A stretch of 63,679 bases of DNA, from IMG/VR virus record IMGVR_UViG_3300030102_005966, positions 1 through 63,679 of that record; one strand, written 5' to 3'. The notes beneath the pieces were generated by a model. It made no database searches, was not told where the DNA came from, and worked only from the letters and a program-made list of their open reading frames with translations. Source of the DNA: a virus. Its lineage: Duplodnaviria; Caudoviricetes. The position numbers were made by a program, and so were the translations under genes. Of the stretch, positions 6,429 to 21,755 are shown one piece after another. Each line of letters starts with the position of its first letter. Positions within the stretch are counted from its first letter, which is position 1.

Positions 6429-6515
6429 TGTAATATAAAGTTAAAATGAGTTGTTAGGTTATAAGTGAAGATAGACCTCTCCCCTTTCGGTCGGGAAAAC
6501 GATCTACTTTAAGTG

Positions 6516-6625
6516 TCTTATGAACCCTGTTTCCTAGAACTAATTTAGGCTAGAGCAACCGGACAGAGATTCGTGGTGTATCATAAGAGACCTAGAACTA
6601 TTCATGGCTAGAGCAACCTAGTCTG
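6516..6625 (-). promoter_or_regulatory. Tandem structured motif in the capsid 5' leader
   Basis: Two copies of GGTTGCTCTAGCC-N6-AGTTCTAGG on the minus strand (6533-6560 and 6591-6618), with different closing stems. Confidence 0.55.
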
Positions 6626-6639
6626 TTTACGATACAAAG

Positions 6640-6668
6640 AAGATAAGGGTAAAAAGACAGGGGGTCAA
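6640..6668 (-). promoter_or_regulatory. Sigma70-like promoter of the capsid gene
   Basis: TTGACC-N17-TATCTT on the minus strand. Confidence 0.6.
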
Positions 6669-6683
6669 CTGCCTATTTTGTAT

Positions 6684-7010
6684 CTAATCCTTATTGGGGG
6701 TATGACCGTTGTAGAGCTTCTCCATTATCTTCTCTACATCTAATTCAAGCATGGATATCTTTAAATCCTGACGAACATCAGAGGGCAGAGAACCACTCCC
6801 CCACTTGCCAGCAGGCCACAGTTCGGTGAACTCTGAGTTCTTAGCCACGTCCTTAGCGATCATCTTGATTTGGAAATCGTTGTGCTGGACTTCCGATTGT
6901 AGCTTGGATGCCCACCAAACAATACCACCTGCTTGGATAGCCAGCCCTACGAGTAGAGAAACAATAAATTTAGGGTCGATAGGACTGCTAGATTCTTTGC
7001 AACGGCTCAT
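6684..7010 (-). CDS. Single-TM membrane protein with coiled coil
   Basis: Hydrophobic stretch FIVSLLVGLAIQAGGIVWWA followed by a soluble domain. Confidence 0.55.
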   Translation of the reverse strand: MSRCKESSSPIDPKFIVSLLVGLAIQAGGIVWWASKLQSEVQHNDFQIKMIAKDVAKNSEFTELWPAGKWGSGSLPSDVRQDLKISMLELDVEKIMEKLYNGHTPNKD

Positions 7011-7282
7011 TAATTCAACTCCTTCTTTTTAATTTCCAAGCGATCCCACACCATCTTCTCAGCTAAGTGACTATCCTTCGTCCCTTCGGGCAAGTTAGTG
7101 TGTTCCTGCAACCACTCAAGAGCATTGTGTAGCCCCGTCTTATACAGGGAACAACGATGCTGTAAGTGCATCTTCTGCTCACGCAGGGACTCATAGTCTT
7201 CCCTGAGGGCTTTTGTTTTTATATGGGGATTGGACTTAATATAGTTATTATAGTCCTTATTGGAAATGTGATCAGAAGGCAT
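7010..7282 (-). CDS. Hypothetical protein
   Basis: 90 aa, stop overlaps the next start. Confidence 0.55.
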   Translation of the reverse strand: MPSDHISNKDYNNYIKSNPHIKTKALREDYESLREQKMHLQHRCSLYKTGLHNALEWLQEHTNLPEGTKDSHLAEKMVWDRLEIKKKELN

Positions 7283-7283
7283 C

Positions 7284-7490
7284 TTACTTCATTTGATCTT
7301 CGACAGCCTCAAGGAACGATTTAGCCGCATTAACAGCTTCTTTAAAAGACATAGTAGCCAAAACTTTTTTTGGTTTGTCGTGCCCATAACCAGCATCTTT
7401 CAACACAAGATGCTCCTCTACTGTGTTGGCTTTTACAGCGATCCCCTCCTTATACATGTCGTGGGGCTTAAAGGGCTTATCCTTTTTCAT
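7284..7490 (-). CDS. Hypothetical protein
   Basis: 68 aa, tightly packed in the operon. Confidence 0.55.
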   Translation of the reverse strand: MKKDKPFKPHDMYKEGIAVKANTVEEHLVLKDAGYGHDKPKKVLATMSFKEAVNAAKSFLEAVEDQMK

Positions 7491-7491
7491 A

Positions 7492-7554
7492 CTAGTAACC
7501 AGTTTTTGGTTTGGGCTTAGGCTTAGGCTTGGGCTTTTTAGATGTAGCTTTCAT
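7492..7554 (-). CDS. 20-aa Lys/Pro minigene (MKATSKKPKPKPKPKPKTGY)
   Basis: Fills the gap between neighbours exactly, with 1-nt spacing on each side. Confidence 0.4.
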   Translation of the reverse strand: MKATSKKPKPKPKPKPKTGY

Positions 7555-7555
7555 A

Positions 7556-7810
7556 TTATTTTCTACTGCGGTTGGTTGCTTTAAGGAAAGCAGCTTTTTC
7601 TGCCCCAGTGTAAGAAGCTCGTTGCTTGCCTTTGGCGGTTGCTTGTTTCTTTTTTCTGTTTCCCGCTGCTCTTTGAGCGGGCGTTAATGATTCCCGAGCG
7701 GCTTTGGGTAGGTAACGCTCCCCCGTTTCAGATGATTTCTTACCGGAAGAAGTCCCCCAATCCTCTTTTGTCCACTGCTTTAGGGACTTTTGGGGTTTCT
7801 TGTAAGCCAT
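7556..7810 (-). CDS. Small basic phage protein (resembles the C-terminal part of DUF5872)
   Basis: KKPQKSLKQWTKEDW...GERYLPKAA motif. Confidence 0.6.
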   Translation of the reverse strand: MAYKKPQKSLKQWTKEDWGTSSGKKSSETGERYLPKAARESLTPAQRAAGNRKKKQATAKGKQRASYTGAEKAAFLKATNRSRK

Positions 7811-7989
7811 TACTTATAACCTCCACCAGCCTTTTTATACTCACGAGCTAAAAACTGCGCCTTGCGAGCAGACCACTGCCCCGGTTTACCTCCTTTAGAC
7901 CCAGCCATAATACGCTTAAACAAACGCTTACGCATACCGGGCTTCGTGTAGTTACCGGCTTCGTTAACCCGTGACTTTTTACCCGGCAT
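7810..7989 (-). CDS. Small basic phage protein (resembles the N-terminal part of DUF5872), 59 aa
   Basis: Manual translation MPGKKSRVNEAGNYTKPGMRKRLFKRIMAGSKGGKPGQWSARKAQFLAREYKKAGGGYK*; stop/start overlaps on both sides. Confidence 0.65.
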   Translation of the reverse strand: MPGKKSRVNEAGNYTKPGMRKRLFKRIMAGSKGGKPGQWSARKAQFLAREYKKAGGGYK

Positions 7990-8213
7990 TACCTATAGCC
8001 CCCACTGATACGTATTCTCTTCCCCATCGTGGTTTCGTATTTAGCTTCAGCTTCTTTACGAGCTTCCTTAAGCATTTGGGCAGTTATGGTAGGGCGGCTA
8101 TCTTTTTTCTTTTTCACCAACTCCTTCATAGTCTTCCTCATCTTCTCAGGAGACTTAACTTTGTTCGCGGGGATGCGCTTCTTTACTTTGCGTATAATCT
8201 TTTTACCGGGCAT
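7989..8213 (-). CDS. Small basic protein
   Basis: 74 aa, Lys/Arg-rich, coupled to the next gene. Confidence 0.55.
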   Translation of the reverse strand: MPGKKIIRKVKKRIPANKVKSPEKMRKTMKELVKKKKDSRPTITAQMLKEARKEAEAKYETTMGKRIRISGGYR

Positions 8214-8225
8214 TGTTATTAGTGG

Positions 8226-8534
8226 TTACCATTTGACTTTGTCCGCCCAATAAGCGGCGGACATTTTGCCTCGTTTAATGTTCTTAGCATGGCGGGCTTT
8301 AAAGGACGCTCTTTTCTTACGCATCCTATCTGACTCACCTGCCTTCGGCTTCCCAGCAGTTTTAGCTCCTTGCTCTCCGAAGCGGATAATCTTTACCTTA
8401 TCCCCTTCTTTTGCCGCCACTACGTGGCTCTTCTTAGAGTGACCGGGAGTCCGCTTGGGTTTATTAAACCCCGCGAAAGTCTCGCCCCGAAACTGAATTC
8501 GCCCACTAGGTAACCGTTTAAATTTAGCAGCCAT
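8226..8534 (-). CDS. Small basic conserved phage protein
   Basis: FNKPKRTPGH...KIIRFGEQG...SFKARHAKNI...AAYWADKVKW motif, a pattern familiar from aquatic phages. Confidence 0.65.
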   Translation of the reverse strand: MAAKFKRLPSGRIQFRGETFAGFNKPKRTPGHSKKSHVVAAKEGDKVKIIRFGEQGAKTAGKPKAGESDRMRKKRASFKARHAKNIKRGKMSAAYWADKVKW

Positions 8535-8568
8535 TAGTAAGCATAACTTAACTTTTAACTGTTCTCAA

Positions 8569-9798
8569 CTACCCGGAACCCAAGATGGAGTCAATAGCCT
8601 CCACAAAAGACTTTTCACGAGCAATCTTAGAACCACCCTCAGATGCTGGTGCCCCCGATACCGTAGGCTCTGCTTCCTCATACTCGGCAAGCTTGTCCGT
8701 CAGAGTTTCCGCTTCCTTCCTTGCCCCCAAATACTCACGGATAATAGTAGGTAGGAGCTGGGCAGCAACTGAATTGTATGCAAAGTCAACAGGGTGGACT
8801 ACAGACGGGTCGAGCCCCGCAGCCTTTTCTTCAATGCCACTCATATCCAACCCCTCAAATCCACTTAGGAAAGGCAGTTTTTCATTAACACGCTTCACCA
8901 CATTACGAGTGACGTTCGTCCGAAGTTCCGCTTGCTTAGCCAGTTCCTCGTTTTGCCGTTGCTCTTCCAGTGCCTGCGCCTCTTTTAAAGCTGCGTCAGC
9001 GTTAGTATACAGCTCCTCTCTTCTCTGCAGGATAGGTTCTAGGTCTTCAATAATCCGGTAAACACTTGCCTTGTCCCGGTCAGAGGCAGAATACAAAAGG
9101 TCGCTAAGCATCGAATCCTGCTTAGCAGTATCCTCCTCAGCAATAGCATCAATCAAGTTATCCGCTTCAATTTCGTATTTGGATGCAATTTCACTAGCCC
9201 GTTCCAAAACAGCATTAAGGGGCTCTGCCACCGCTTCTTGGTATGCGGAGGTAGCCTCCAAATCAGTCACCAACTTTTCCTGCTCAAACTCAGCAAGCTT
9301 GGCCTTCAGGGTGTCAAAGTCCTGCCCCTCGACAAGACCGCTCATTTCCTTCATCTTCGCCTCTTGCTCCTTCATCGTCTGACGAAGCTCCTCCACCTCG
9401 GAACGGTTGCTCTTCAGCTCGTTCTTAAGTTGCTTAAAACGGTTGGCAGCTTTCGGAGTCCAGTCATCCCCCACATCCGCAGACAAAGACTCAATAGGGT
9501 CTTCCTCCGCAGCTGGTTCCTCCTTCGTGGTTACTGGTTCCTGTTCCGTGGACGATGGTTCCTCCGTAGCTTTCTCAGGCTCAGGAGTAGGCTCAGGAGT
9601 AGGCTCAGGAGTAGGCTCAGGCTCGGCAACTGCTTCCGGTTCAGGGTTGGTAGCTTGGTTAAGTGCCTTGTCTATAGCATCCGTAAAACTTAAGGCGGGC
9701 TCAGGAGTCGCGTTCGGTAAGGAGGATTCAGGAGTTGGTGCCGCTTCGGGAGCTGCTTCTTGGTTTTCCGCTACTGCGGTGTCTGTATGTGTTTCCAT
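8569..9798 (-). CDS. Capsid scaffolding protein (putative)
   Basis: Acidic, Pro-rich disordered N-terminus plus long coiled coil; lies between portal and capsid genes. Confidence 0.65.
   Translation of the reverse strand: METHTDTAVAENQEAAPEAAPTPESSLPNATPEPALSFTDAIDKALNQATNPEPEAVAEPEPTPEPTPEPTPEPEKATEEPSSTEQEPVTTKEEPAAEEDPIESLSADVGDDWTPKAANRFKQLKNELKSNRSEVEELRQTMKEQEAKMKEMSGLVEGQDFDTLKAKLAEFEQEKLVTDLEATSAYQEAVAEPLNAVLERASEIASKYEIEADNLIDAIAEEDTAKQDSMLSDLLYSASDRDKASVYRIIEDLEPILQRREELYTNADAALKEAQALEEQRQNEELAKQAELRTNVTRNVVKRVNEKLPFLSGFEGLDMSGIEEKAAGLDPSVVHPVDFAYNSVAAQLLPTIIREYLGARKEAETLTDKLAEYEEAEPTVSGAPASEGGSKIAREKSFVEAIDSILGSG
9577..9620. repeat. 12-bp tandem repeat encoding (EPTP)n
   Basis: aggctcaggagt about 3.5 times. 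Confidence 0.85.
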
Positions 9799-10088
9799 TC
9801 TTCAGGTTGGGTAGGCTGTTGGTTTTGTCCTTTCAAAACAGTTAACTTGTGAATATCACTAAAAGCATCACGGTATCCTGCATACCATGCATGTCGGTGG
9901 CTATTTTCGGAGGGATCGGAACTGACCGTGGAGTTTGTTGGTCCTGCGATTTCTTTGAGTGTAGCTGCTGCCGATTGGAAAGTCTCAGACTCCACGATAG
10001 CTCGCAGTTCCGTAACTTTTTTGGGGTCATTGAACCAATGATTAAGGGGTATAGGTAAAGGTGTAGGTAAGGTTTTGGTTTTGGGCAT
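9771..10088 (-). CDS. Small protein downstream of portal
   Basis: 105 aa, typical position between portal and scaffold. Confidence 0.6.
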   Translation of the reverse strand: MPKTKTLPTPLPIPLNHWFNDPKKVTELRAIVESETFQSAAATLKEIAGPTNSTVSSDPSENSHRHAWYAGYRDAFSDIHKLTVLKGQNQQPTQPEEWKHIQTPQ

Positions 10089-10094
10089 AAAGGG

Positions 10095-12335
10095 TTAACG
10101 CTGCGCTTGATCCCGCATCTTCATCACGTTCGCAGCGTCCCGCATAGCTTGTTCTTGGTTGAACTTCGCCTGCTTTATCTCCATGTCCAGCTGGGCTTTT
10201 TGCTGGGCCATTTGCATCTTCATCTGATGCTCTTGGAGTTTGGCGTCCATCATGGGGTCGCCTTGCTGCTCGGCCCCTTCGGGTGCAGCCTGCGCTTGGT
10301 CGCGCTGAATCTTTTGCACTTGCTTGGAGGTATTATTAATCATCTCCTCTGCAAACTGTAGTGCTTGGTTAGCCTCACCTACCATAGCTTCCTGCGAAGG
10401 GTCTTGGGCAAGAAGCTGAGTCGTCTCAGCGATATGCTGATAGAACGCCTGCATAGCAGGAAGCGACTGAACGGGGTCTGCCACCCCTTCATTAAGCTGC
10501 TCGATAAGTAGCATCATCTCCGGAACATGGATCTGGAGGTGGGCTCCATGAATCTCATTAGACTCAACAGGCACGGGGGTTCCCTGCATTAACTGCTGGT
10601 TCTCAAAGAACGCAATCTTATTATCTACTGTCGGACGGGCTTCTTCTACCTGCGGTGCGTAGCGGTCAGCGAGATCGTGACCTACGCGAGTTGAGACAAT
10701 ATCCCTAGTCAGGTTCTGACGCCCTACCTCATCGAACGAACCTGCTATCGCCTGCAACTCGCGTAGAGCCACTAATCGGTTAGCATAACTTCCATTTCCG
10801 ATAGAGCGCACTGCTTTCGTGCGAGCTACATCCAAGGTTCGGATAAACGACTCCGATATACCCCGGTTAGCGCAACGGGTATAAAAATCCTTAAGGGCTG
10901 GGTCAGACTTCTTGGAAGTCACTATACGGCGGACTACTTCACGGAGAAGCCTATTCCAACTTGAATAGAAAAGATTTAAGGAAGCTCCTGAGAGGCGGGT
11001 GCTAACATCCATGTCAGCCACCACTTGCATTTGGTTCCTGTATGGCGACCCCTGTTGTGGTCCATACGTGCTTACGGTATCCGTGTTTAATGCCAGCTGC
11101 TGGGATATATCCTCAAGGGCTGGCTGCACCGCCGTGCCTAGGTTCGGAATTGCCTTCTCGATAATGTTGACGTTCGGAGACAACACGGCATAGGCTCCGT
11201 AGTATGTAAAGCCCAACTCATCCAACGCACGTTGGCTGTCGGGTTGGATCATTACCGCAGAAGCGAGCATCGCTCCGTCAATCATTTGGCACCTCAAACG
11301 GTTGCTCGTCTGAATGTGGTTGAATATACGGTGACCTAAACCACGAATAGAGTGGTAAGTGCCATTGCTCCCCGTCCCGTAGGTAAATATAACGTAAGCC
11401 TGCTCGGGGGTTTCATAGCGAGAAATCTTTTTGTATAGAAATTCCTTAGGGCTGTTTTCCGCTGCGATATAGTGAGAAACACTTCCATCTATTTCGCGCA
11501 CCCAAAAGTGCAAGACGGATACGGTGGGGTTTTGATGCCCCGCATGTAAATCATTATTTTTTAGCTCTTGTTGGGTTGCCTCCCAGTCAGTGTATGTATG
11601 GTGTCTCGATGTCCTCCCGCTTGTGCTGGCATTCTTTACGATCACCCGCTTAACTTCATCCACATCCCACCCTACACGGGCTGCTGCCTTCTCATTCTTA
11701 ATGAAGGCATACAGCTCGTGCAGGTGGTATTCACGACGACCGATGGCAATGTCGATAGCGTTTTCAGATGCTGGGGTTTGGCGGGGAATCAAAATGTCCG
11801 TAAAAGAACCTACCCGAAAACGCCACTCGTCGGGCGTATCAAAGTAAGTGATTCCTGTGCCATGTTTAATGAATGATGTGCAGAGCCTCAAGTAGCTTGA
11901 ATGAAACTCAGGCCACGAGCGCAGCATATGAGTAATCTCTTCCGCTACAATCCCCTCTTGCTCGGTTATCTCGGCAGGTTCCCCTTCGGTTCCTCTAACC
12001 TCAACCAGTCGCTCAAGCGAAGAATAAAGATCCACATAAGCGGACAGGGATATATCAAGCAAGCGTTGTGCTTCTCCAAAGTTTAAGTTGGTCTTTAACC
12101 CCTGACCACTAGCCGAAAGAGCCCCAGCATCGTAGGGATTAGCTCCATCAAACATTGCGTCAATACGAGCGCGGTTAATAGATGAGGACTCATCCGCTCG
12201 GCGCAATCCGTGATAAATGTTTATTGCGCTTTTTACGTCTTTTAATCTTGGTTCTACGGGCTTCCCTTTATCGTCAAGAGAGCCGAGACCGTCTAAGGCG
12301 TTAAGCTCGAAATTCGTCTCATACATTGAATGCAA
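10095..12335 (-). CDS. Portal protein (putative)
   Basis: 746 aa with a Gln/Met-rich C-terminal coiled coil typical of P22-like portals; first gene of the head module. Confidence 0.7.
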   Translation of the reverse strand: MHSMYETNFELNALDGLGSLDDKGKPVEPRLKDVKSAINIYHGLRRADESSSINRARIDAMFDGANPYDAGALSASGQGLKTNLNFGEAQRLLDISLSAYVDLYSSLERLVEVRGTEGEPAEITEQEGIVAEEITHMLRSWPEFHSSYLRLCTSFIKHGTGITYFDTPDEWRFRVGSFTDILIPRQTPASENAIDIAIGRREYHLHELYAFIKNEKAAARVGWDVDEVKRVIVKNASTSGRTSRHHTYTDWEATQQELKNNDLHAGHQNPTVSVLHFWVREIDGSVSHYIAAENSPKEFLYKKISRYETPEQAYVIFTYGTGSNGTYHSIRGLGHRIFNHIQTSNRLRCQMIDGAMLASAVMIQPDSQRALDELGFTYYGAYAVLSPNVNIIEKAIPNLGTAVQPALEDISQQLALNTDTVSTYGPQQGSPYRNQMQVVADMDVSTRLSGASLNLFYSSWNRLLREVVRRIVTSKKSDPALKDFYTRCANRGISESFIRTLDVARTKAVRSIGNGSYANRLVALRELQAIAGSFDEVGRQNLTRDIVSTRVGHDLADRYAPQVEEARPTVDNKIAFFENQQLMQGTPVPVESNEIHGAHLQIHVPEMMLLIEQLNEGVADPVQSLPAMQAFYQHIAETTQLLAQDPSQEAMVGEANQALQFAEEMINNTSKQVQKIQRDQAQAAPEGAEQQGDPMMDAKLQEHQMKMQMAQQKAQLDMEIKQAKFNQEQAMRDAANVMKMRDQAQR

Positions 12336-12368
12336 AATCTAAAGTGTTTTGAACACAAATACAAGTGC

Positions 12369-12848
12369 TTATAGGGAGCCGCTCGCTAGGTCTACAACGG
12401 TATCGACAGCAAGGAACTTACGGGAGCCATCTGAACGGTATAGCGTGACATACGACTTGTCGCGCTTCATGGTAGCTCGCACTGGGTAACACTTGCCAGC
12501 ATTCGGTCCCCTCTTCGGAGGGTCTATGCAGTAGATGGCTCCGTAGTGCGTGGTTGCGTATCGCGGGAAGCCGGGGACGATGGTCGCCTGCAGTCCTTCC
12601 AGTATCTCCTCACGGGTCAGGTATTCGGATGGGGGCTCGCCAAACGTAGATTCGGCTAGGCGAGTAGAGTCGAACACCCACTTCTCGCCATTATCCTTGT
12701 ATACCTGTGCATACCACTTGCCGTTCTTAAATTGTTGTATGAGGCGTTTCCCCTCGCGCCACACGTTCCCGTCAGGCGTAAGGCAGTATTTCAAAGCCCC
12801 ATCTATAAATACACTATTTTCCGGTGCTGCTATAACGGTTGTAGCCAT
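12369..12848 (-). CDS. NUMOD4/HNH-associated-like protein without a recognisable HNH core
   Basis: Two repeats of an Y..T.dG.V/I...Y.V.L pattern (IVPGFPRYATTHYGAIY); no HNH motif seen. Confidence 0.4.
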   Translation of the reverse strand: MATTVIAAPENSVFIDGALKYCLTPDGNVWREGKRLIQQFKNGKWYAQVYKDNGEKWVFDSTRLAESTFGEPPSEYLTREEILEGLQATIVPGFPRYATTHYGAIYCIDPPKRGPNAGKCYPVRATMKRDKSYVTLYRSDGSRKFLAVDTVVDLASGSL

Positions 12849-12877
12849 TAGAGAAAATTATTGAATCTGCCCTATAT

Positions 12878-12951
12878 ATAAACTATTTCCTATATAGGTC
12901 TGTGGTTTATTCTACTTTAGAATAAATTACATACTGCTTCTCAGAAACTTT
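12878..12951. repeat. ~75-bp dispersed element with palindromic TTTATTCTA-N3-TAGAATAAA core, copy 1
   Basis: Aligns by eye with the reverse complement of 48074-48147. Confidence 0.65.
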
Positions 12952-12968
12952 TCAACTTATTGTTTCAC

Positions 12969-13229
12969 TCAAGACTTTTCTTCTTTCTGCATCTCTGCCC
13001 ACAACTCAGCCGCCCGTTTTAAACGTGAGCGGTGTAAGCGTTCCTTGTTCTTGCGGTAATATGCGCGGTTGTATTTGCGCGTATTCTCCAACCACTTGGG
13101 GTCTGTCTCCTTACGTAGCTCCTTACGCCTTTTTATCGCTTCCTTGTTTTCTTCGTAGTATTTCTTTTGGTAGGCTTTACGGGCATCCTTGTTTTCTTCG
13201 TAGTATTTTTGCTTGTCGGGATTGGGCAT
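12969..13229 (-). CDS. Small basic helical protein with KYYEENK repeats
   Basis: 86 aa; repeat type common in N-termini of phage endonucleases; TTGACA about 30 nt upstream. Confidence 0.55.
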   Translation of the reverse strand: MPNPDKQKYYEENKDARKAYQKKYYEENKEAIKRRKELRKETDPKWLENTRKYNRAYYRKNKERLHRSRLKRAAELWAEMQKEEKS

Positions 13230-13304
13230 CCTTATTCATATGCGCGGTTGAATTGGTGTCAAATTTTTTCTTATACTCTCATATATAGATATGCACACGC
13301 GCAC

Positions 13305-13952
13305 GAAAATACGCCACCCTACGGGTGGCGTATTCTGATAACTTCCGACAAGATGTCTAATCTCTAATCGAGATTAGACATAAAAAGATTTGCAACTCCC
13401 TTATAGTGAATACTTAACCCCTAAAGGGTTAAGTATTCAGGGTTCAGGAACCACCTCATCTCGCGTGTGTAGAGAGTGATTTCGCATGTGCACGGCTCTG
13501 CTAAAGCAGAGCGGGGGTTGTATTTCGTTTTGTTGATGACCCTCTCGTTCAGTGTGGAGTATATCCATACTCCACACTGAACCCTGCGCGTTGGTTAAAG
13601 GAACTTGTTCCTTTAACCCGATTCATTAACCATTTTGGATTCAATCAGTTTATATCAATGCATTGATATAAACACCTGTGCGCGAATACTGGAACAAGTT
13701 CCAGTATTTTCCTGAGCTGGAGGCAAGGCAATTTTGGGAAGTGAGCTGACCATCTACCGATGGTCGTGCGCGTTGCTCTGCTTGCAGAGCCAATTTAATC
13801 GGTGTTTTTAGCCTTTGGCTCTGCTAAAGCAGAGCGTCTGCGCGACAGTGCGTGGCTAACAAGTTAGCTCCTGCCCTGTAGCACTCAGCCCCGCCTAGCG
13901 CGGCGCGGATAAGGCGGAGGCGCGACCCAGTTATTTTCTCTGAAAATAACTG
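13305..13952. repeat. Array of about 13 sequence-diverse palindromes (non-coding)
   Basis: Examples: 13308-13334, 13353-13381, 13407-13439, 13547-13582, 13593-13618, 13648-13673, 13686-13709, 13928-13952; arms 6-16 bp. Confidence 0.9.
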
Positions 13953-13994
13953 AAAAAAAAGAATTTGCCAAGTTCGGCGTTTTGGTGCTAGTGT
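13953..13994 (+). promoter_or_regulatory. Candidate main early promoter
   Basis: A-tract, then TTGCCA-N18-TAGTGT with a TG extension; faces the 12-kb plus-strand block. Confidence 0.45.
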
Positions 13995-13999
13995 TTTTG

Positions 14000-14430
14000 G
14001 GTCATCGGAAATCGACTGACCGAGCCGAACGGTTCGCTGGCTGAACTTGATCGCCAGTCGCCGGGAGAGAGAGATCCTGCTCTCCTGCAAATTTGGCTAC
14101 TCATCCTTGATCCCTTCCTTGTTTGGTAAGGCAGATAGGATGAACCCTACGGGGTTTAGGATAGCTACTATGGTAATTGGAGAAGAATATCTTCGACTTT
14201 TGAGGCAATAAAGTTCCCTCATGGAGATGCACAGCATCTAATCGAAGTAACGATCCATGGTGGTAGTGAGCTGGGATGTCCATGCTTTAGCATGGTCATG
14301 AGTCTTGAAGACGCTCGTCTCCCTCACAGTTAACTGGCTAGGAAGCTGAATCATGTAGTGGATGATTAACTGTCCTACAAGGAAACATGTTGGTTAACAA
14401 TTAAACTCCTTCGGGAGACAATTTCAAAGT
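14000..14430 (+). ncRNA. Large structured leader/ncRNA candidate
   Basis: No credible plus-strand ORF; many nested helices with G-U pairs valid only on the plus strand, e.g. taggatag/ctgtccta enclosing gctactatgg/ccatggtggt and cttcga/tcgaag. Confidence 0.55.
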
Positions 14431-14448
14431 TTATAAAGATTTCATTTA

Positions 14449-14503
14449 AACCCGTTTGGATACAATCCAAACACAACCGCTACCTTCGGTAGCTTAGAAA
14501 GGA
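14449..14503 (+). repeat. Early leader element copy 1 (two hairpins + SD)
   Basis: aacccgtttggatacaatccaaacacaaccgctaccttcggtagcttagaaagga directly before the ATG. Confidence 0.9.
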
Positions 14504-14508
14504 ACATC

Positions 14509-15009
14509 ATGGCTAAAGCTAAGATGACCAACCGTAAAACAGCAACTAAGAAAGTTGCTAAGAAAGCTCCTGCCAAACGTAAAGTTTGGAAGAAGCGTCC
14601 AGCAACCAAGAAGGTTGCCAAGGAGACAGCAACCAAGAAGGTTGCTAAGAAGGTGAGTCCAAAGGACTCCACCAAGGAACGGAAGACCGCTCCGGTCTTC
14701 AACCCTCTCGCTACAGCATTTGCTGTAGCTAGGGAAGCAATCGAACTCTTCCGACAGGGAGAGATCGAAGACCTGAGTTTCCTTTACAAGGAACTCACTG
14801 CCTGTTGCTCCGCTAGGAGCAACGGAGACGGTAGCCTTGCATCTCAGATTGAGATGCAACAGTGGAGGCACAACTTTGCCTCCATCCTCTTCGGTATCCT
14901 TGAGGATACCTTGCAAACCGTCGAAGACGGTGGCTCCCTTGAGGAACTCAAGGGTAGGATAGTGGAACAAGTTCCACAAGCTGAGGACTTTGTATCCTCC
15001 ACCCTGTAA
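14509..15009 (+). CDS. First early protein; histone-H1-like basic N-terminus, acidic C-terminal domain
   Basis: ATKKVAK repeats; strong SD. Confidence 0.75.
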   Translation: MAKAKMTNRKTATKKVAKKAPAKRKVWKKRPATKKVAKETATKKVAKKVSPKDSTKERKTAPVFNPLATAFAVAREAIELFRQGEIEDLSFLYKELTACCSARSNGDGSLASQIEMQQWRHNFASILFGILEDTLQTVEDGGSLEELKGRIVEQVPQAEDFVSSTL

Positions 15010-15086
15010 AGGGTAGGAGTTCAAGGAACTCCGAGTCAGGGACACTGTAGGTAACTACAGTGTCCTTGCGTTGGAAGTCTTTGTTT

Positions 15087-15145
15087 AACCCGTTTGTATC
15101 CAAAGGATACAAACACAACCGCTACCTTCGGTAGCTTAGAAAGGA
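15087..15145 (+). repeat. Early leader element copy 2
   Basis: aacccgtttgtatccaaaggatacaaacacaaccgctaccttcggtagcttagaaagga. Confidence 0.9.
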
Positions 15146-15151
15146 TAGCTT

Positions 15152-15403
15152 ATGGATAAGCTATTGGAACTGTTGGATAACATTCTTAACGAATGTACTG
15201 ACAGTGCTGTTATACAGCAACTTGTTTACATGAGGTTGGCTTTAGTCAACCTCAGTAAACGAAAGGGTGGATGCCCTAAGTTCACAACTGTTTACAGTTG
15301 TGCGTTCGGTCATCTCTTTGAAGAGATGATGAAGCTACAGGATGCAGAACTCGAAGAGATCTGCATGGAACTTGATTCCCCTCATGAATATGAGGAAGAA
15401 TAA
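15152..15403 (+). CDS. Small acidic early protein
   Basis: 83 aa, follows a leader element. Confidence 0.7.
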   Translation: MDKLLELLDNILNECTDSAVIQQLVYMRLALVNLSKRKGGCPKFTTVYSCAFGHLFEEMMKLQDAELEEICMELDSPHEYEEE

Positions 15404-15590
15404 AGTGGTCATAAAGACCATCAACTCTCCGATTCAACGGAGAGTATGGCAGAGCATGACTCTTAGTCATGCTATGAAGCAAGCCCCAACTCCATCGGAG
15501 TTAAGGGCTAAGTCGGCAACCCAGTCCAGTAAGGGCTGGGTTGATTTCTTGGAGTCCAGTCTTACAGACTGTAAGCTGAAGCTGGACTGA
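15390..15590 (+). CDS. Hypothetical early protein (start uncertain)
   Basis: ORF overlapping the end of the upstream gene. Confidence 0.45.
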   Translation: MRKNKVVIKTINSPIQRRVWQSMTLSHAMKQAPTPSELRAKSATQSSKGWVDFLESSLTDCKLKLD

Positions 15591-15591
15591 A

Positions 15592-15645
15592 CACTCCACC
15601 CTCCACCCTCTACAGGGTGGAGGGTTCAACCTAAATTAGAAAGGA
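15592..15645 (+). repeat. Second leader class: accctccaccct/agggtggagggt hairpin + SD, copy 1
   Basis: Near-identical copy at 16111-16162; related forms at 22308 and 23941. Confidence 0.8.
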
Positions 15646-15654
15646 ACTTAGCCA

Positions 15655-15882
15655 ATGGCTAATTACATCAACACTTTACAGGAAGCTGTAAAGGAACATC
15701 ATGCTGACAAAGAGAGAGCAATCGAAACAATTAATTGTTTCATGAACTATCTCCAATCATCCAAGTTTTGGAATGATACCACCATCCAAGTTGTAGAAGT
15801 TGCTAGACTTCTACACAACATCAAGTCAGAACTTGATGTTGATAGATACGAACCCGATTGTATCCAAAAGATACAATCATAA
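15655..15882 (+). CDS. Hypothetical early protein
   Basis: 75 aa, SD AGAAAGGA. Confidence 0.7.
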   Translation: MANYINTLQEAVKEHHADKERAIETINCFMNYLQSSKFWNDTTIQVVEVARLLHNIKSELDVDRYEPDCIQKIQS

Positions 15883-15909
15883 CCGCTACCTTCGGTAGCT
15901 TAGGAAGGA
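15851..15909 (+). repeat. Early leader element copy 3 (overlaps the 3' end of the upstream gene)
   Basis: aacccgattgtatccaaaagatacaatcataaccgctaccttcggtagcttaggaagga. Confidence 0.85.
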
Positions 15910-15913
15910 ACTT

Positions 15914-16105
15914 ATGGCATCAAACTATAAGTTTTATAGACGACCAGCAATCGTCATTCGCTCCAACGCTAAAAGCGGTGGAGGCTATGCCCTTCAGAGG
16001 CAGAGCGATGAGCTTTATGAAAAGCTCATGGAGGCAGAGGCAGTGATAAGATCACTGCAAGCGAAGCGGAGACTTCGCATTCCCTTGGAAGACCAAGATT
16101 GGTAG
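15914..16105 (+). CDS. Hypothetical early protein
   Basis: 63 aa after a leader element. Confidence 0.7.
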   Translation: MASNYKFYRRPAIVIRSNAKSGGGYALQRQSDELYEKLMEAEAVIRSLQAKRRLRIPLEDQDW

Positions 16106-16110
16106 TCCAT

Positions 16111-16168
16111 ACTCTACCCTCCACCCTCTACAGGGTGGAGGGTATAACTTAAACAGAAAGGATACAAA
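16111..16168 (+). repeat. Second leader class, copy 2
   Basis: actctaccctccaccctctacagggtggagggt...agaaaggatacaaa. Confidence 0.8.
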
Positions 16169-16173
16169 GTATC

Positions 16174-16395
16174 ATGCCTTCTTTTAGAACCAAGACAGCA
16201 AGTCAGTCTCACCTCGATCTTCGTGAGGCTAAGAGGTCTTGCTGTATACCAAACCACCAAGATACTTGGTGGTTCAAAGACAAGCCTTGGAAGAAACCCA
16301 AGGCTTGGAGAGGATCGAAACTAGCCAAGAGGCTTTCCGCTAAAGCGGAAAGAAAACAAGCAAAGCTTAACTTAAACAGAAAGGATACAAAGTGA
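16174..16395 (+). CDS. Small basic early protein
   Basis: 73 aa, strong SD. Confidence 0.65.
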   Translation: MPSFRTKTASQSHLDLREAKRSCCIPNHQDTWWFKDKPWKKPKAWRGSKLAKRLSAKAERKQAKLNLNRKDTK

Positions 16396-16733
16396 GTATT
16401 GAGAATGATACCGTGACAGGTGGTGAATATCCCTCATGGGATAATCACACTGCAAAGTTATTCAGAGATGCTAAAGCATCTGCTGAACTATTTACTCCAC
16501 CACTTTATAAGTGGATGGAGTATGCTGATGATGATCGTAACCCCCTTGGGGTTACTGATGGTAAGGTTCTTAACCTTACCGAACCCGACCCCGGAGGGGT
16601 CGAAGAGATTGGCTTTGGTATTCCTATGGAATACCAAGATGACACTCCGTCATTTGAAACCCAACCAAAACTTAACCCTGAAGGGTTAAAGAACCTCAAA
16701 GAAAGGACACAAAGTAATGGATACTACGTATAA
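16392..16733 (+). CDS. Hypothetical early protein
   Basis: GTG start after agaaaggatacaaa. Confidence 0.65.
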   Translation: MSIENDTVTGGEYPSWDNHTAKLFRDAKASAELFTPPLYKWMEYADDDRNPLGVTDGKVLNLTEPDPGGVEEIGFGIPMEYQDDTPSFETQPKLNPEGLKNLKERTQSNGYYV

Positions 16734-16932
16734 CGGCTGGAGAAATCGCTCCACTTGGTTAGTTAATGTTTGGTTTAACCCAACATCCTCTGATCTTGAC
16801 TCCATAAAAGAAAGTCTTGATCAAAAGGTAGATGATCTACGTAACTCTAATGATATGCTGGACAACTTCCTCGCTGACCATATCAATTTAGATGAAATTG
16901 ATTGGGAGGAGTTAGCTGAGGCTCTCGCCTAG
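16717..16932 (+). CDS. Conserved small phage protein (YNGW.N..TW.VN.W family)
   Basis: N-terminal TYNGWRNRSTWLVNVWF motif; SD gaaagga. Confidence 0.7.
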   Translation: MDTTYNGWRNRSTWLVNVWFNPTSSDLDSIKESLDQKVDDLRNSNDMLDNFLADHINLDEIDWEELAEALA

Positions 16933-17058
16933 GTGCAGGCGAAAAACACCACCCTCTCGGAAAGGTGGTATAGCATTCTCTAACATAGTGTAGAGAATGC
17001 ATACCTCCTTTCCTTAGAGAGGGGGGTGAGCAACCGAATTTCAAAACCCCCTTTTGAT

Positions 17059-17112
17059 AACCCGTTTGGATTCACTCCAAACACAACTGCCACTACGGTG
17101 GCTTAGAAAGGA
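17059..17112 (+). repeat. Early leader element copy 4
   Basis: aacccgtttggattcactccaaacacaactgccactacggtggcttagaaagga. Confidence 0.9.
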
Positions 17113-17120
17113 CATAGCTT

Positions 17121-18251
17121 ATGGCTAAGTCAGAAGTGCCGATAAGAAAGTTATCGGTTTCAGAAGTTGGTGCTATTGCACCACTCACCTATCAGACAAA
17201 CAGATTCTTCTGTTTGCTGGGCAAGGGAGGCAATGGTAAAACTACCATCGCTTCCACCGTGGTAGCTCCGGCTATCGGAGCTACTAGGGCAATGATCCTG
17301 AACTTCTCAGGATCATCTCCGATGGAGGTTCTTGGTTACGGCATCCCCGATGCTTCTACAAGAGACCTTTGGTTCTCTTGTCCTGAGAATCTCCCTACTA
17401 GGGAGAGGATCGGGGATGAGAAAATCCTTCTCGTCCTTGACGAGTTCACTGACTGGGACTTAGCAGTCCAGTCACTGTTCAAGTCTTGCTTCAACCCTGT
17501 TGATGGTGAGGCGAAGATCGGGACTCACGTTCTTGGTAAGAACGTCAAGATCATGGTGACTGGTAACCGTCGCCAAGACGGTTCCAGTAAGTCTTCGGTT
17601 CTGTCTGCTCCACAAGTGGAGAGACAGTTTACTTACATCCTTGAACCCACTCTTGATGAGTGGATTCAGTGGGTAGCCGACGAAGGCTTCGGTGACTCCG
17701 CCATTTTGACATATCTTGATATGGCAAATGGTCTTGAGGGAGTTGACCATTTCAATCCTATGATTGGAACTTGGGAAGGTGCTCCTCATCCATGTCCTAG
17801 GACATGGGATGCCGCTATCCGGTCAGTGTCTTTGACATCTGACCAGAACCTCCAGTCTATCCTTCTTGAAGGATCGGTTGGAATTGAAGCAGGCTCTGCC
17901 TGTATGTCCTTCTTGAATACTGTAGCAACTATGTTGCCAGTATACAAAAGGATTAGGGATGGAGTGGAAGAGATGGCACTCGACTCTAATGGAGTCGAAC
18001 GCTCACCCCAAGACCAGTATGGTCTTGTCCACTGTGCTCTCCGCAATCTCCTGAAGGAGACTGCGTCAGACCCTGAGGCAGCAGTAGTCGAAGACTCTGC
18101 TGGTAATACTGACATCGACTGGTTCGTCGATAGATTCCTTCTTGCTGGCAAGAATGAGATCGGTGAATGGGGCTACTCCGCTACTAAGCGGAATGGAGTT
18201 CCCATCAACAACCACCCTAAGCGTGAGCGTCTCCAAGGATTTGGAGACTAA
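17121..18251 (+). CDS. MoxR/CbbQ-like AAA+ ATPase
   Basis: Walker A GKGGNGKT, Walker B LLVLDEF, sensor TGN, C-terminal PCPRTW motif. Confidence 0.8.
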   Translation: MAKSEVPIRKLSVSEVGAIAPLTYQTNRFFCLLGKGGNGKTTIASTVVAPAIGATRAMILNFSGSSPMEVLGYGIPDASTRDLWFSCPENLPTRERIGDEKILLVLDEFTDWDLAVQSLFKSCFNPVDGEAKIGTHVLGKNVKIMVTGNRRQDGSSKSSVLSAPQVERQFTYILEPTLDEWIQWVADEGFGDSAILTYLDMANGLEGVDHFNPMIGTWEGAPHPCPRTWDAAIRSVSLTSDQNLQSILLEGSVGIEAGSACMSFLNTVATMLPVYKRIRDGVEEMALDSNGVERSPQDQYGLVHCALRNLLKETASDPEAAVVEDSAGNTDIDWFVDRFLLAGKNEIGEWGYSATKRNGVPINNHPKRERLQGFGD

Positions 18252-18350
18252 GCGCACTCACACTTCCCTCTTAGGAGGGGGGTTAGTAACTACTCTTTAT
18301 GCAGTAAAGAGTAGTTACACCCCCTCCGTTAAGAGAGGGAAGATAAACAA

Positions 18351-18403
18351 AACCGTTTGGATACAATCCAAACACAACTGCTACCTTTGGTAGCTTAGAA
18401 AGG
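18351..18403 (+). repeat. Early leader element copy 5
   Basis: aaccgtttggatacaatccaaacacaactgctacctttggtagcttagaaagg. Confidence 0.9.
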
Positions 18404-18410
18404 GTTAGTT

Positions 18411-19307
18411 ATGGCTAACACTGTTATCGTCGATGACAAAAAGATCGACACCAAAATGCGAAGCATAGTGAAATGCACTTTCACTGCTTCTTGTCCAGCA
18501 GCTACGGTGGTTCACCGTGTTGCCACTGAGAAAGTCAGTGACATCTACAACTCCAGCGACGAAGTCGCTTGGGTAAAGGTAGCTCCGATTCCCCGTAAGG
18601 GGAGTGTCTACGGTAGCTTAACCTCTGTTATTAACTCTACTGGAGTTAAGATCAGAGACATGGGCTTACCTTGTAAGACCGGAGGGACTTACATCCAGTC
18701 TGCTGATATCGAAGAGGTTATTACCATCTTCGATGAAGGTCAGAAGGAACTTGATCGACTTATCAAAGTCGTTCTTCCGGCTGAGTGGGACGGTATCGTA
18801 GCTAAAGCTACGAAGGATATGGGGGAACTTGCTAAAGCAGTTCCCATCCCAACTGCTGAAGTGTTCGGTTCCAAGTTTGGAATGGACATCATTTGGGAGC
18901 ACAGCCCTCAAGATATTGAGGGGACTGTAATGAAAGGAGTTGCCAACGAAGTTGCGGCTCGGATCAGAGCACAATCAAAGAAGTCCACTAAGGACATGTT
19001 TGTCACTGCTCATGGAGCACCTATTCAGGAAGTCATTACCTTCCTGACTGACACAATCAAACACCTTAGTGGTGGTAAGAGGTTGGGTCAGAAGAGGTTC
19101 GACAATGCCGCTAAAGCGGCTCAGAAGTTAGCGAAGAAAAACATTCTCGATCTCCCTGAGATTGAGAGTGTTATCCAAGCTATGGCTTCGATTGGTGCAA
19201 CCAATCGTGATGACATTGTCACTGACAGTGACAAGGATAAAGTCATCGAGAAAGTGAAACACGCTACCAAGGTAGCGTTGACTGCCAAGGCAGACCTTGG
19301 TCTGTAG
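18411..19307 (+). CDS. Helical partner protein of the AAA/vWA module (DUF3150-like by position and character)
   Basis: 298 aa between the AAA and vWA genes; family call is tentative. Confidence 0.5.
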   Translation: MANTVIVDDKKIDTKMRSIVKCTFTASCPAATVVHRVATEKVSDIYNSSDEVAWVKVAPIPRKGSVYGSLTSVINSTGVKIRDMGLPCKTGGTYIQSADIEEVITIFDEGQKELDRLIKVVLPAEWDGIVAKATKDMGELAKAVPIPTAEVFGSKFGMDIIWEHSPQDIEGTVMKGVANEVAARIRAQSKKSTKDMFVTAHGAPIQEVITFLTDTIKHLSGGKRLGQKRFDNAAKAAQKLAKKNILDLPEIESVIQAMASIGATNRDDIVTDSDKDKVIEKVKHATKVALTAKADLGL

Positions 19308-19309
19308 TT

Positions 19310-19364
19310 AACCCGTTTGGATACAATCCAAACACAACTGCCACCTCCGGTGGCTTAGAAAGGA
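19310..19364 (+). repeat. Early leader element copy 6
   Basis: aacccgtttggatacaatccaaacacaactgccacctccggtggcttagaaagga. Confidence 0.9.
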
Positions 19365-19369
19365 ACACT

Positions 19370-20953
19370 ATGAGTGTTGCTGTTAGAGCGAAAGCTCGTG
19401 AAATTCCTAGCTACGTAGTAGCTGGGTCAAAGATATCCGTTCCCATTAATGGGAAGGACATCCTTGCTAGGGCATTGAGAGTAGTCAGAGACTACTGTCC
19501 ACTTGCCTACGGCAAGTTGGTAGCCATGGACTGGTTCGGCACTGACCGAACTGCCTACGGTGCTACCGATGGTAGGAAGCTTTTGCTTAATCCCAAGGGA
19601 TTAGCGAAGCTGGCAGAGACATCCGACCCTGTCGGACTGACTGCCTTCTTGCTTCTCCATGAAGCTTACCATGCTTTGCTTGGTCATGGTCATAGACTGA
19701 AAGGTCTTAACCACGATTTAGCAAATCGTGCCGCTGACTACTCAATCAACTGGTTGATTAGTCAGGAGAACAACAAGTATGATAGGGAACACTTCCCTAT
19801 CATCGAAGGTGCTCTGCTTGATTCTCGCTTTGACAATATGTCAACCATCGAGATATACCGTCAGTTGCTCAAGGAGCAACCCGAACCACCTCAGGGTGAC
19901 AACCCTGAGGGGGGTGGAGGTGGAGAACGGATCAACGTCAACGGCACTCCTAATCCCGAAGGGGATTCGGAGGACGGTGATGGTGACGGAGACACCGAAG
20001 GTGGTAGCACCGAAGGTGAGGACACTGGAAGTGGAAACACCGAAGGTGACGAAGACGGTGAAGGCACTGAAGGTGGAGACACCGAAGGTGACGGCGGGGA
20101 TGACACCGAAGGTGACGACTCCACTAGTGGAGGAGGAGCTGACACCAACCCCGGCAAGCCGAAGTCTGACAGTGAAATTCTCGGAGATGACTTTGCTGGC
20201 AAGGGAGGTCAAGATACCTTCGAGCCGAAGGCTAATCCGAAGGAGAAGAAATCTCAGGAAGAGATTGAGAAGGAGATTGATCAGCACAACGAAAAGGTTG
20301 TGTTGATTGATCGGATGGCTGAATCCTGTGGGATTGGTGGCTCTGCTGGAACACGTTCTGTTGCAGAACAGAACAGTGTTACAAAGAAGCCCTTTGACTG
20401 GGCTTCCTATCTCATCCACTGGATGTCAGCAAGGCTGGATGAAGGTTGGAACAAGATGTTCAACACTCCGATGTATTCCTCTACAGGAATGGTTTGTGCT
20501 GGACGAGAGAGAAAGTCAGCTGGAAAGCTGGTCATCGTCGTAGACGATAGTGGATCTATCTATGATAGACTTCTCAAGTTGTTCTTGCTCTGTGTCCAAG
20601 AAGTCTTGGACGAGATGAAGCCTGAGGTTATACACCTCATTGCTGTAGACAACCACTATCCTACAGAGGATAGACAGTGGGAGTTAAGACCGGGGGACAC
20701 CGTCCCCGACAGACTCCCCAATGGTGGTGGAGGCACTGCTTTTCAGCCAGCATTTGACTGGGTGGAGGACAACTGTCCTGACTGTGATGGTCTTGTCTAC
20801 ATCACTGATGGTCAGAGCTGGGATATCAGTGATATCCGCGAGCCGGACTATCCGGTCTTTTGGTTGAGCTGGTGGCTCAACAAGGATAGCTTCCCCTTTG
20901 GGGACGCTCACCGGATTGATCCATCAATCGCCAGTTACGACCACGGTCGGTAA
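19370..20953 (+). CDS. DUF2201-like metallopeptidase + acidic linker + vWA domain protein
   Basis: ATDG, HEAYH, N.AAD..IN; long G/D/E/T linker; MIDAS VDDSGS, GGGGT, YITDG. Confidence 0.85.
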   Translation: MSVAVRAKAREIPSYVVAGSKISVPINGKDILARALRVVRDYCPLAYGKLVAMDWFGTDRTAYGATDGRKLLLNPKGLAKLAETSDPVGLTAFLLLHEAYHALLGHGHRLKGLNHDLANRAADYSINWLISQENNKYDREHFPIIEGALLDSRFDNMSTIEIYRQLLKEQPEPPQGDNPEGGGGGERINVNGTPNPEGDSEDGDGDGDTEGGSTEGEDTGSGNTEGDEDGEGTEGGDTEGDGGDDTEGDDSTSGGGADTNPGKPKSDSEILGDDFAGKGGQDTFEPKANPKEKKSQEEIEKEIDQHNEKVVLIDRMAESCGIGGSAGTRSVAEQNSVTKKPFDWASYLIHWMSARLDEGWNKMFNTPMYSSTGMVCAGRERKSAGKLVIVVDDSGSIYDRLLKLFLLCVQEVLDEMKPEVIHLIAVDNHYPTEDRQWELRPGDTVPDRLPNGGGGTAFQPAFDWVEDNCPDCDGLVYITDGQSWDISDIREPDYPVFWLSWWLNKDSFPFGDAHRIDPSIASYDHGR

Positions 20954-20994
20954 CCAATCGTCCTAAGCATGACATTAAACTGCTTACTTATACT

Positions 20995-21033
20995 AACCCG
21001 TTTGGATATAATCCAAACACAAAACAGAAAGGA
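20995..21033 (+). repeat. Early leader element copy 7 (first hairpin + SD only)
   Basis: aacccgtttggatataatccaaacacaaaacagaaagga. Confidence 0.8.
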
Positions 21034-21038
21034 AGCCA

Positions 21039-21257
21039 ATGGCTTATGAAAAAATAGCGGTTAAGATTAACCGTAGAGATGGAGATGGAGTGTATTACAT
21101 ACAGTCCATAAAGGGATCAGTAACCCTTACGGTTATCATTGATAACCAAGACGAAACGCTGAGAGTAGGTGACGAAGTGTCTGAGAAGGAGGTTGAATAC
21201 CTCGTTGATCGGCATAGGTCTTACTCTGTAACTATAAGCAGTGTGAAAGGAGGTTAA
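21039..21257 (+). CDS. Hypothetical early protein
   Basis: 72 aa, strong SD. Confidence 0.7.
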   Translation: MAYEKIAVKINRRDGDGVYYIQSIKGSVTLTVIIDNQDETLRVGDEVSEKEVEYLVDRHRSYSVTISSVKGG

Positions 21258-21260
21258 GTT

Positions 21261-21689
21261 ATGTGGATACATAGTGAAAAAGGATTCCTCTCTATAGTAG
21301 AGTTCATTGGGAGTCCCGATAACTTGCTTGTAAGAGCAAGGTATGACGGAGACATTGAACGTATCTTTGGAGAAGATACTTATGTGATGGCTGGAGCTGG
21401 CTCTGACTATGAATTCCGGGCTGTTGTTCCTAGGGAACAAGTGTCTGCTGTCATTCATAGAATGGTTGACGAAATTAGTTACCCTAATTTTAAAGACCGG
21501 ATGGAGAACGTCCATCGTCGCCAACATTCGGACTACCTAGGTAGTATCCACCCTGCTATCAAACCATCAACTGATATGGTTGAAGTAAAGCAAAATGCTT
21601 TACATAGAGTTTGGGAAGTTATGTTCCAAGCTCAACAAGAAGCTGACGCTTGCATAGACTGGACTAATGTAGTCGAGACTAGTGAGTAA
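21261..21689 (+). CDS. Conserved hypothetical protein (MW....GF.S.V...L.VRAR...DY.FR...I.Y.NFK family)
   Basis: Recognisable motif pattern; SD aaaggaggt. Confidence 0.7.
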   Translation: MWIHSEKGFLSIVEFIGSPDNLLVRARYDGDIERIFGEDTYVMAGAGSDYEFRAVVPREQVSAVIHRMVDEISYPNFKDRMENVHRRQHSDYLGSIHPAIKPSTDMVEVKQNALHRVWEVMFQAQQEADACIDWTNVVETSE

Positions 21690-21697
21690 ATAAACAA

Positions 21698-21750
21698 AAC
21701 CGTTTGGATACAATCCAAACACAACTGCCACTACGGTGGCTTAGAAAGGA
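21698..21750 (+). repeat. Early leader element copy 8
   Basis: aaccgtttggatacaatccaaacacaactgccactacggtggcttagaaagga. Confidence 0.9.
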
Positions 21751-21755
21751 TCAAC

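Follow-up and report, generated by a model that had tools for sequence, protein, structure and literature searches.

Predicted RNA structure in a lineage-specific, gene-free stretch ahead of the early genes of an uncultured marine phage

Introduction

At the left end of coliphage T7, the early promoters are followed by a leader that carries no genes but contains an RNase III hairpin, and then by gene 0.3. In phage HK022, the put RNA acts through the β′ zinc-binding domain of the host RNA polymerase. It is a cis-acting RNA of ~70 nt with two stem-loops that suppresses terminators preceding the early genes (PMC9378689). A third arrangement is that of the PeSL cassettes of T4-type phages, which combine a strong σ70-like promoter with a stem-loop terminator and are repeated among small early genes (PMC2839356).

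Here we analyse positions 14000–14430 of a window that is the complete 63,679-base IMG/VR record of an uncultured marine phage. The locus resembles the left end of T7 in opening its early unit with a gene-free stem-loop stretch before the first early gene, and in having stem-loop elements between early genes, here in the form of a two-hairpin cassette; in contrast to T7, the leader is much longer (up to 1.2 kb) and unrelated in sequence, and no strong host-type promoters were found. With put (PMC9378689), the stretch shares its proposed position, after an early promoter and before a long early transcript, as well as a putative stem-loop RNA that would act in cis without protein, but it differs in comprising 430 nt with many stem-loops, in lacking any similarity and in having no evident strong internal terminators within its unit. 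The neighbouring cassette is, like the PeSL elements (PMC2839356), a short conserved stem-loop module before many small early genes, and contig junctions across gene 1 hint at module exchange; in contrast to PeSLs, it shows neither a conserved σ70-type promoter nor a plus-strand terminator tail.

Using folding ensembles, homology searches and natural strain variation, we find that the stretch is non-coding and structured to a moderate degree; two of its local domains are robust, and it has neither relatives nor a known family. We infer its transcription, its strand and its role, and tentatively, at somewhat less than even confidence, read it as an untranslated leader or spacer of the early operon that is confined to this lineage, moderately structured and generic in its cis role.

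Results

Genome layout and candidate control sites

Leftward late genes occupy positions 2–12848 and are followed by a conserved 86-aa gene (12969–13229), after which a gene-free stretch of ~1.2 kb (about 13290–14508) separates the late genes, which run leftward, from the early genes, which run rightward. Positions 14000–14430 form its final third, upstream of the first early gene. Every one of the small genes from 14509 to 27846 runs rightward; beyond them come a leftward ORF of 5,938 aa (27912–45728, minus strand), neither half of which gave a Pfam or PHROG match, and then the terminase and replication block. A search of a phage collection returned no match to 13400–14700 (blastn) or to the neighbouring 746-aa protein (tblastn). 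TerL and the DNA polymerase share at most 27% identity with those of cultured phages, and the phage appears to have no close cultured relative. The features of the region are as follows.

13258–13330, plus strand: single-copy motif conserved throughout the phage family (exact 13-mer, ATATATA box, A-run, GGGTGGCGT box), from an alignment of 21 sequences
13308–13952, no strand assigned: ten perfect palindromic hairpins (8–16-bp stems, 2–5-nt loops) in the first half of the gene-free stretch
13965–13994, plus strand: weak candidate rightward promoter, TTGCCA then TG-n-TAGTGT (8/12; manual reading, below scan threshold)
13971–13966 and 13948–13943, minus strand: candidate promoter overlapping the previous one, TTGGCA and TATTTT (9/12)
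14000–14021, plus strand: first hairpin, GGUCA.../...UGACC (pair probability 0.59–0.99)
14063–14086, plus strand: hairpin GGGAGAG/CUCUCCU (probability 0.89–0.95)
14101–14156, plus strand: hairpin UCAUCCU/AGGAUGA with an inner stem, then a small hairpin AACCC-UACG-GGGUU (probability 0.59–0.95)
14164–14264, plus strand: domain B, a 10-bp closing stem (three G-U pairs) around four small hairpins (0.97–0.99 in three contexts)
14276–14299, no strand assigned: hairpin CCAUGC-UUUA-GCAUGG with a flanking AUG/CAU extension (probability 1.00)
14317–14419, plus strand: domain C′, a 7-bp closing stem GUCUCCC/GGGAGAC around three hairpins (0.96–0.99 in three contexts)
14379–14405, plus strand: Shine–Dalgarno-like AAGGAAAC, then a 5-codon mini-ORF (14388–14405), from reading the sequence
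14446–14508, plus strand: first copy of the two-hairpin cassette that stands before at least seven early genes, at the right edge of the stretch
15084–15151, 15846–15913, 17059–17120, 18349–18410, 19308–19369 and 21694–21755: further cassette copies, with a half copy at 20994–21022

The motif at 13258–13330 adjoins the start of the 86-aa gene and marks the left edge of both the gene-free stretch and the hairpin domain. Its exact 13-mer occurs once in the window and once per locus in 36 of 66 related loci, and many relatives have TTCATG-like short repeats after the motif. We regard the motif as a candidate early promoter, origin or packaging site. The original prediction had placed the stretch after the early promoter and before the first gene; the second half of this placement holds, whereas for the first half no plus-strand σ70-like site of at least 9/12 exists within 13700–14390. 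The weaker candidate at 13965–13994, the spacer of which contains a strain change (13971–13973), would start an RNA at about 14000. Promoter-like sites, of which 5 were found and 3.4 ± 1.7 expected, show no enrichment.

Strong plus-strand intrinsic terminators stand at the end of the unit (26041–26074 and 26197–26235), with another at 27876–27910. Between 14430 and the first genes there is no canonical hairpin followed by a T-run, and inside the unit there are only weak T-tailed hairpins. The hairpin-rich domain starts at 13308, immediately to the right of the motif, and ends near the two strong terminators, which would fit one rightward unit of ~12–13 kb that includes the flagged stretch. The proposed antitermination would find little to act upon, since the first strong plus-strand terminators come only at the unit's end (26041–26235), and the put arrangement of early genes behind terminators needing read-through is not found here.

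Coding potential and known RNA families

The stretch contains no credible ORF, as had been predicted: all of its small ORFs lack the conserved start region of the early-gene type, none of six that were compared matched a PHROG family below E 0.1, and a 1-base deletion at 14083 (contigs of runs X3 and X7) frameshifts three of them. The Shine–Dalgarno-like site and mini-ORF at 14379–14405 are similar to the start regions of early genes. Two other readings of this segment were discarded: a decayed cassette copy at 14388–14425 went unmatched by an nhmmer cassette profile at E 10, and a boxA-like element at 14388–14400 rested only on a consensus, the heptamer TTAACAA occurring 11 times in the window, which is estimated to be near chance for a 7-mer. 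Within the stretch, no motif is repeated.

Rfam 15 is expected to cover the large bacterial and phage RNAs, introns, RNase P, tmRNA and 6S. With membership taken to require that a hit to a family's covariance model reach that family's gathering threshold, the whole window gave no match; at E ≤10, the region 12800–15200 gave only two chance-level eukaryotic hits, both outside the stretch core. ARAGORN detected no tRNA or tmRNA in the stretch. Elsewhere, at 16029–16125 on the minus strand, it listed an odd 'tRNA-???' with a 2-base anticodon that is most likely an artefact of dense hairpins. Among the 21 runs listed, there is no RNA run that contains the stretch.

Local domains rather than one enclosed fold

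The plus strand of 14000–14430 folds at −146.4 kcal/mol against −125.1 ± 5.7 for its shuffles (z −3.76; 0 of 100 as good), confirming that it folds better than shuffled controls; the minus strand does so equally well (−132.6 against −110.4 ± 5.8; z −3.83; 0 of 100). All 12 helices named in the original prediction are complementary and lie, to within a base, about where they had been placed. The taggatag arm begins at 14157 and its final G doubles as the opening G of gctactatgg, and cagttaa/ttaactg competes with taggatag/ctgtccta for three shared bases (14370–14372).

As a measure of helix support we took the mean pair probability in the folding ensemble in three sequence contexts, including 14000–14430 and 13900–14600. 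Seven of the 12 reach at least 0.88 in the 14000–14430 context (ggtca/tgacc, ggagag/ctctcc, tcatcct/aggatga, gctactatgg/ccatggtggt, tgagg/cctca, agatgc/gcatct and ccatgc/gcatgg), two of which, ggtca/tgacc and tcatcct/aggatga, fall to 0.59 in the wider 13900–14600 context. The ctggc/gccag helix has a probability of 0.47–0.76, and four helices are unsupported: gagccg/cggttc (0.08–0.40), cttcga/tcgaag (0.01), cagttaa/ttaactg (0.04) and taggatag/ctgtccta (~0.001). The last of these, which had been thought to enclose the 3′ half, carries a penalty of 7.5 and 6.8 kcal/mol in two contexts when enforced, and the long-range pairs of the minimum-energy structure (14022–25/14313–16 and 14030–38/14265–73) are lost once flanks are added. 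Because the enclosing helix is both improbable and costly, the picture of a single enclosed 430-nt multibranch RNA fails; the robust part of the predicted fold is instead a chain of hairpins with two closed domains, 14164–14264 and 14317–14419.

The closing duplex of domain B is predicted at −14.5 kcal/mol on the plus strand against −6.8 on the minus strand and −5.9 ± 2.3 for shuffled arms. Its energy is matched by 0.35% of 2000 shuffles and the equal energy of the domain C′ duplex (−14.5 kcal/mol, against about −6 ± 2.3 for shuffled arms) by 0.25% of 2000, percentages that are generous because the closing stems were chosen after the fold was seen; 1.5% of 680 genomic background segment pairs also reach −14.5 kcal/mol. 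Domain B as a whole scores z −3.3 on the plus strand against −1.7 on the minus strand, while sub-domains A and C have no plus-strand preference, C being the stronger on the minus strand. The suggestion that G-U pairing fits the plus strand only is thus retained for domain B and not for the rest of the stretch, and domain B is, in these models, the sole element that appears clearly plus-strand-specific. The 3′ arm of domain C′ competes with a local CUCC-UUCG-GGAG hairpin (UUCG at 14410–14413). The small AACCC-UACG-GGGUU hairpin likewise has a UNCG-type loop (UACG at 14148–14151), a type that is specially stable in RNA. Were transcription to start near 14000, the hairpin at 14000–14021 would form a 5′-terminal stem-loop.

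A hairpin field across the early region

To place this fold in context, we folded 431-nt plus-strand windows with 20 dinucleotide shuffles each. Across 23 consecutive windows from 13138 to 22620 (~9.5 kb), 22 score z −4.2 to −14.9, and windows in an ATPase-like gene (17017) and an HNH-like gene (19603) reach −14.9 and −13.9. The flagged window, at −2.8 in this 20-shuffle run, is the weakest of the 23, and a special structuredness of the stretch is not supported. The 29 late-region windows range from +1.0 to −4.3, two of them lying at or below −3.8. These two, at 4518–5380 (z −3.9 and −4.3), are as far from their shuffles as the flagged stretch and span the gap between two minus-strand genes, of which one ends at 4798 and the other starts at 6428.

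Counting as perfect those hairpins that have a stem of ≥8 bp and a loop of 2–7, we found 96 in the window against 3–11 in ten shuffles; 79 of the 96 start between 13000 and 27000, in a field (13308–26235) that includes real genes. Their density is 10.8 per kb here against 0–3.5 on the early sides of 41 relatives, roughly tenfold. G-T and A-C mismatches are balanced both inside stems (4 versus 4) and at stem ends (14 versus 15), leaving no wobble bias, and the early-region hairpins as a class look strand-symmetric. The flagged stretch sits in a 502-base gap between perfect hairpins (13952–14454), which is unremarkable because neighbouring gaps in the same dense region measure 445 and 423. In the palindrome array, none of the 15 listed strain substitutions falls within the stems (232 bases); 8 are in the loops (30 bases) and 7 lie between hairpins. 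Within gene 1, C14937T and G14953A form a compensatory pair, and stems are kept in natural variants.

Natural variation

Contigs of four runs were compared over 12800–15200, and the counts given here refer to the listed differences, in addition to which 29 further ones exist. Run X3 differs from the window at 12 sites inside 14000–14430, none of them disruptive in the 431-nt fold: five are unpaired, four turn a Watson–Crick pair (A-U or G-C) into G-U on the plus strand (14004, 14097, 14269 and 14316), and three make up a compensated set. Of the four G-U changes, two belong to long-range helices lost in larger contexts. The compensated set (G14064A, A14066G and loss of U14083) re-registers the 14063–14086 hairpin to a perfect 6-bp stem, by a re-pairing that we worked out by hand. 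In the first hairpin, A14004G turns A-U into G-U and C14016T falls in a bulge. The single change in domain B (14248) is in a loop, those in domain C′ (14324 and 14333) are at unpaired positions, the 14276–14299 hairpin has none, and X3 and X6 are free of differences over 14098–14166.

Upon refolding, the X3 variant changes the plus-strand energy by −0.5 kcal/mol, against +4.8 ± 3.9 for 239 random sets with matching mutation types (10% as good), and the minus-strand energy by +1.6 against +6.2 ± 4.8 (18% as good). The structure-compatibility of the X3 differences is therefore not significant (about p 0.1). Listed substitutions amount to 14 in 501 bases of the stretch, 15 in 653 of the palindrome array and 8 in 747 of gene 1 and cassettes; by this count variability in the stretch equals or exceeds that of the flanking sequence.

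Relatives

Searching with the 746-aa gene, we retrieved 66 related loci, to which the late genes (60–82% protein identity) and ~100 bases adjoining the 86-aa gene are common. In none of the 66 did blastn, nhmmer or tblastx detect anything similar to the sequence right of 13344, and the first early gene has no relative among viral contigs. A covariance model of domain B, run against the window and 52 of these loci (747 kb), recovered only itself, the next best hits having E 1.1 and 4.6; conservation thus finds no backing in sequence or in modelled structure. Exact-pattern scans of viral contigs with four stretches (from 14164–14185, 14278–14297 and the cassette) gave 0, 0, 0 and 1 hits, the lone match (L070) being a chance hit. 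A scan of metagenome contigs gave two: L069, which is 99.8% identical over 12531–14500 and adds just the 13971–13973 change, and L068, a chance hit that has just the 20-mer in common with the window. The carriers of the stretch are near-identical strains only, and because it is absent from all more distant relatives no family-wide conserved function can be claimed for it.

Five of the related loci (L008, L029, L061, L062 and L063) have their own gene-free stretch of 1.2–1.4 kb to the right of the 86-aa homologue, unrelated to that of the window. These stretches are AT-rich and 75–88% identical within the group, with TTAACAA-type repeats and with paired hairpins ahead of a conserved 179-aa first gene; in L061, one hairpin is kept with a wholly different stem sequence. 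Since some relatives have such a stretch of their own, a long variable leader or control region is a family trait, and this sequence is not.

The two-hairpin cassette

The cassette ends in a conserved ribosome-binding region before at least seven early genes, and among its seven copies 3 of 14 pairs have compensatory double changes. Both of its hairpins are intrinsic-terminator-like on the minus strand only, with no T-run on the plus strand, and no copy was found in other IMG/VR contigs. In runs X3 and X7, contigs join 14512 to 15086 and 15085 to 14449, across gene 1 at the cassettes; these 14449–15086 junctions reflect either strain gene-cassette variation or an assembly effect of the repeat.

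Discussion

Our analysis describes a stretch that is non-coding, has no Rfam family, folds beyond shuffles and lies upstream of the early genes, and on these grounds the earlier proposal of a cis-acting leader is a fair reading. Rightward transcription together with the early genes would make the stretch the 5′ untranslated leader of the early operon, in which short imperfect hairpins and the two closed multi-stem domains (14164–14264 and 14317–14419) would form. The stretch has more G than C (skew +0.08 to +0.15), a bias contrary to that of Rho loading sites. We hypothesize that the folding of a long, untranslated, G-rich leader could help the transcript to survive and to evade Rho and ribonucleases as far as the first ribosome-binding site. 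A generic cis-acting role is most likely, more so than a dedicated one in catalysis, antitermination or as a decoy, and an antiterminator or decoy function in particular is unsupported.

An unlikely but serious alternative is that the stretch is a functionless spacer, for instance recently acquired or decayed, with a fold that represents the weak end of the process that fills the early region with palindromes. Its restriction to one lineage, the highest density of listed strain differences within 12800–15200, the weakest fold of the 23 early-region windows, the two of 29 late-region windows that fold equally well relative to their shuffles and the non-significant variant test would all fit this. 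What it explains less readily are the closing stems, matched by just 0.25–0.35% of shuffles and 1.5% of the 680 background pairs, and the strain differences, 0 of 12 of which is disruptive and three of which jointly keep one hairpin through compensation; a tightly packed 64-kb phage genome, moreover, rarely retains 0.5 kb of inert DNA.

Rather more doubtful is a control region that works at the level of DNA, an island lacking perfect hairpins with early promoter(s), operators or other protein-binding sites, possibly including divergent promoters at about 13943–13994, in which the RNA fold would be incidental. Overlapping divergent promoter-like hexamers do occur there, the equivalent region of relatives has iteron-like repeats, and the equal significance of the fold on both strands is what DNA symmetry predicts, as is the strand symmetry of the hairpins in the whole domain (4 versus 4 and 14 versus 15). 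The interior of the stretch speaks against such a region, in that 14000–14390 has no strong σ70-type consensus, repeated motifs are absent, a GC content of 45–50% is unlike that of an unwinding element and the 502-base hairpin gap is not unusual beside those of 445 and 423. The closing stem of domain B, moreover, depends on three G-U pairs, which leaves it without a counterpart in DNA.

That same closing stem, with wobble pairs on the plus strand only, is one argument for a dedicated RNA, either a put-like cis antiterminator or anti-pausing element or a stand-alone or decoy RNA built from domains B and C′. Since hairpins elsewhere in the domain show no wobble bias, the stretch is the one place with RNA-type helices; the closing helices of its two multi-stem domains are beyond chance, it has two UNCG-type loops (UACG and UUCG), every strain change is compatible with the structure, and it heads a ~12-kb unit full of hairpins that could pause RNA polymerase. 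We nonetheless consider a dedicated RNA of this sort improbable, as the stretch core has no Rfam match even at E 10, the domain B model finds no homologue or structural analogue in 52 loci, the unit has few plus-strand terminator-like sites inside and its strong ones at the end, the variant test reaches only about p 0.1, conservation of the stretch does not exceed that of its flanks, and put RNAs have ~70 nt and two stem-loops against the 430 nt here (PMC9378689).

Beside the leader or spacer that we prefer stands a bolder version of the RNA idea, in which the stretch would be a plus-strand element of a new kind that conditions the polymerase or the transcript to cross or survive the hairpin field; we give it little credence. 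It would take the 0.5-kb island lacking perfect palindromes, with its two closed domains and their wobble-containing closing stems, as a put-like processive modifier, much larger than put and of unrelated sequence, at the head of a ~12-kb unit whose saturation with perfect hairpins, even inside genes, would be unique to this phage lineage. Should the leader prove to let the polymerase or transcript cope with the hairpin field, it would represent a new type of early-transcription control in phages.

As an ordinary-looking leader or spacer without relatives to study, the stretch matters little alone. Its context is weightier: ~9.5 kb of early sequence, real genes included, is packed with perfect hairpins whose stems are kept in variants. 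In the palindrome array at the left of that field, one loop change, TT to AA at 13605–13606, is the reverse complement of the loop and would fit hairpin flipping or template switching.
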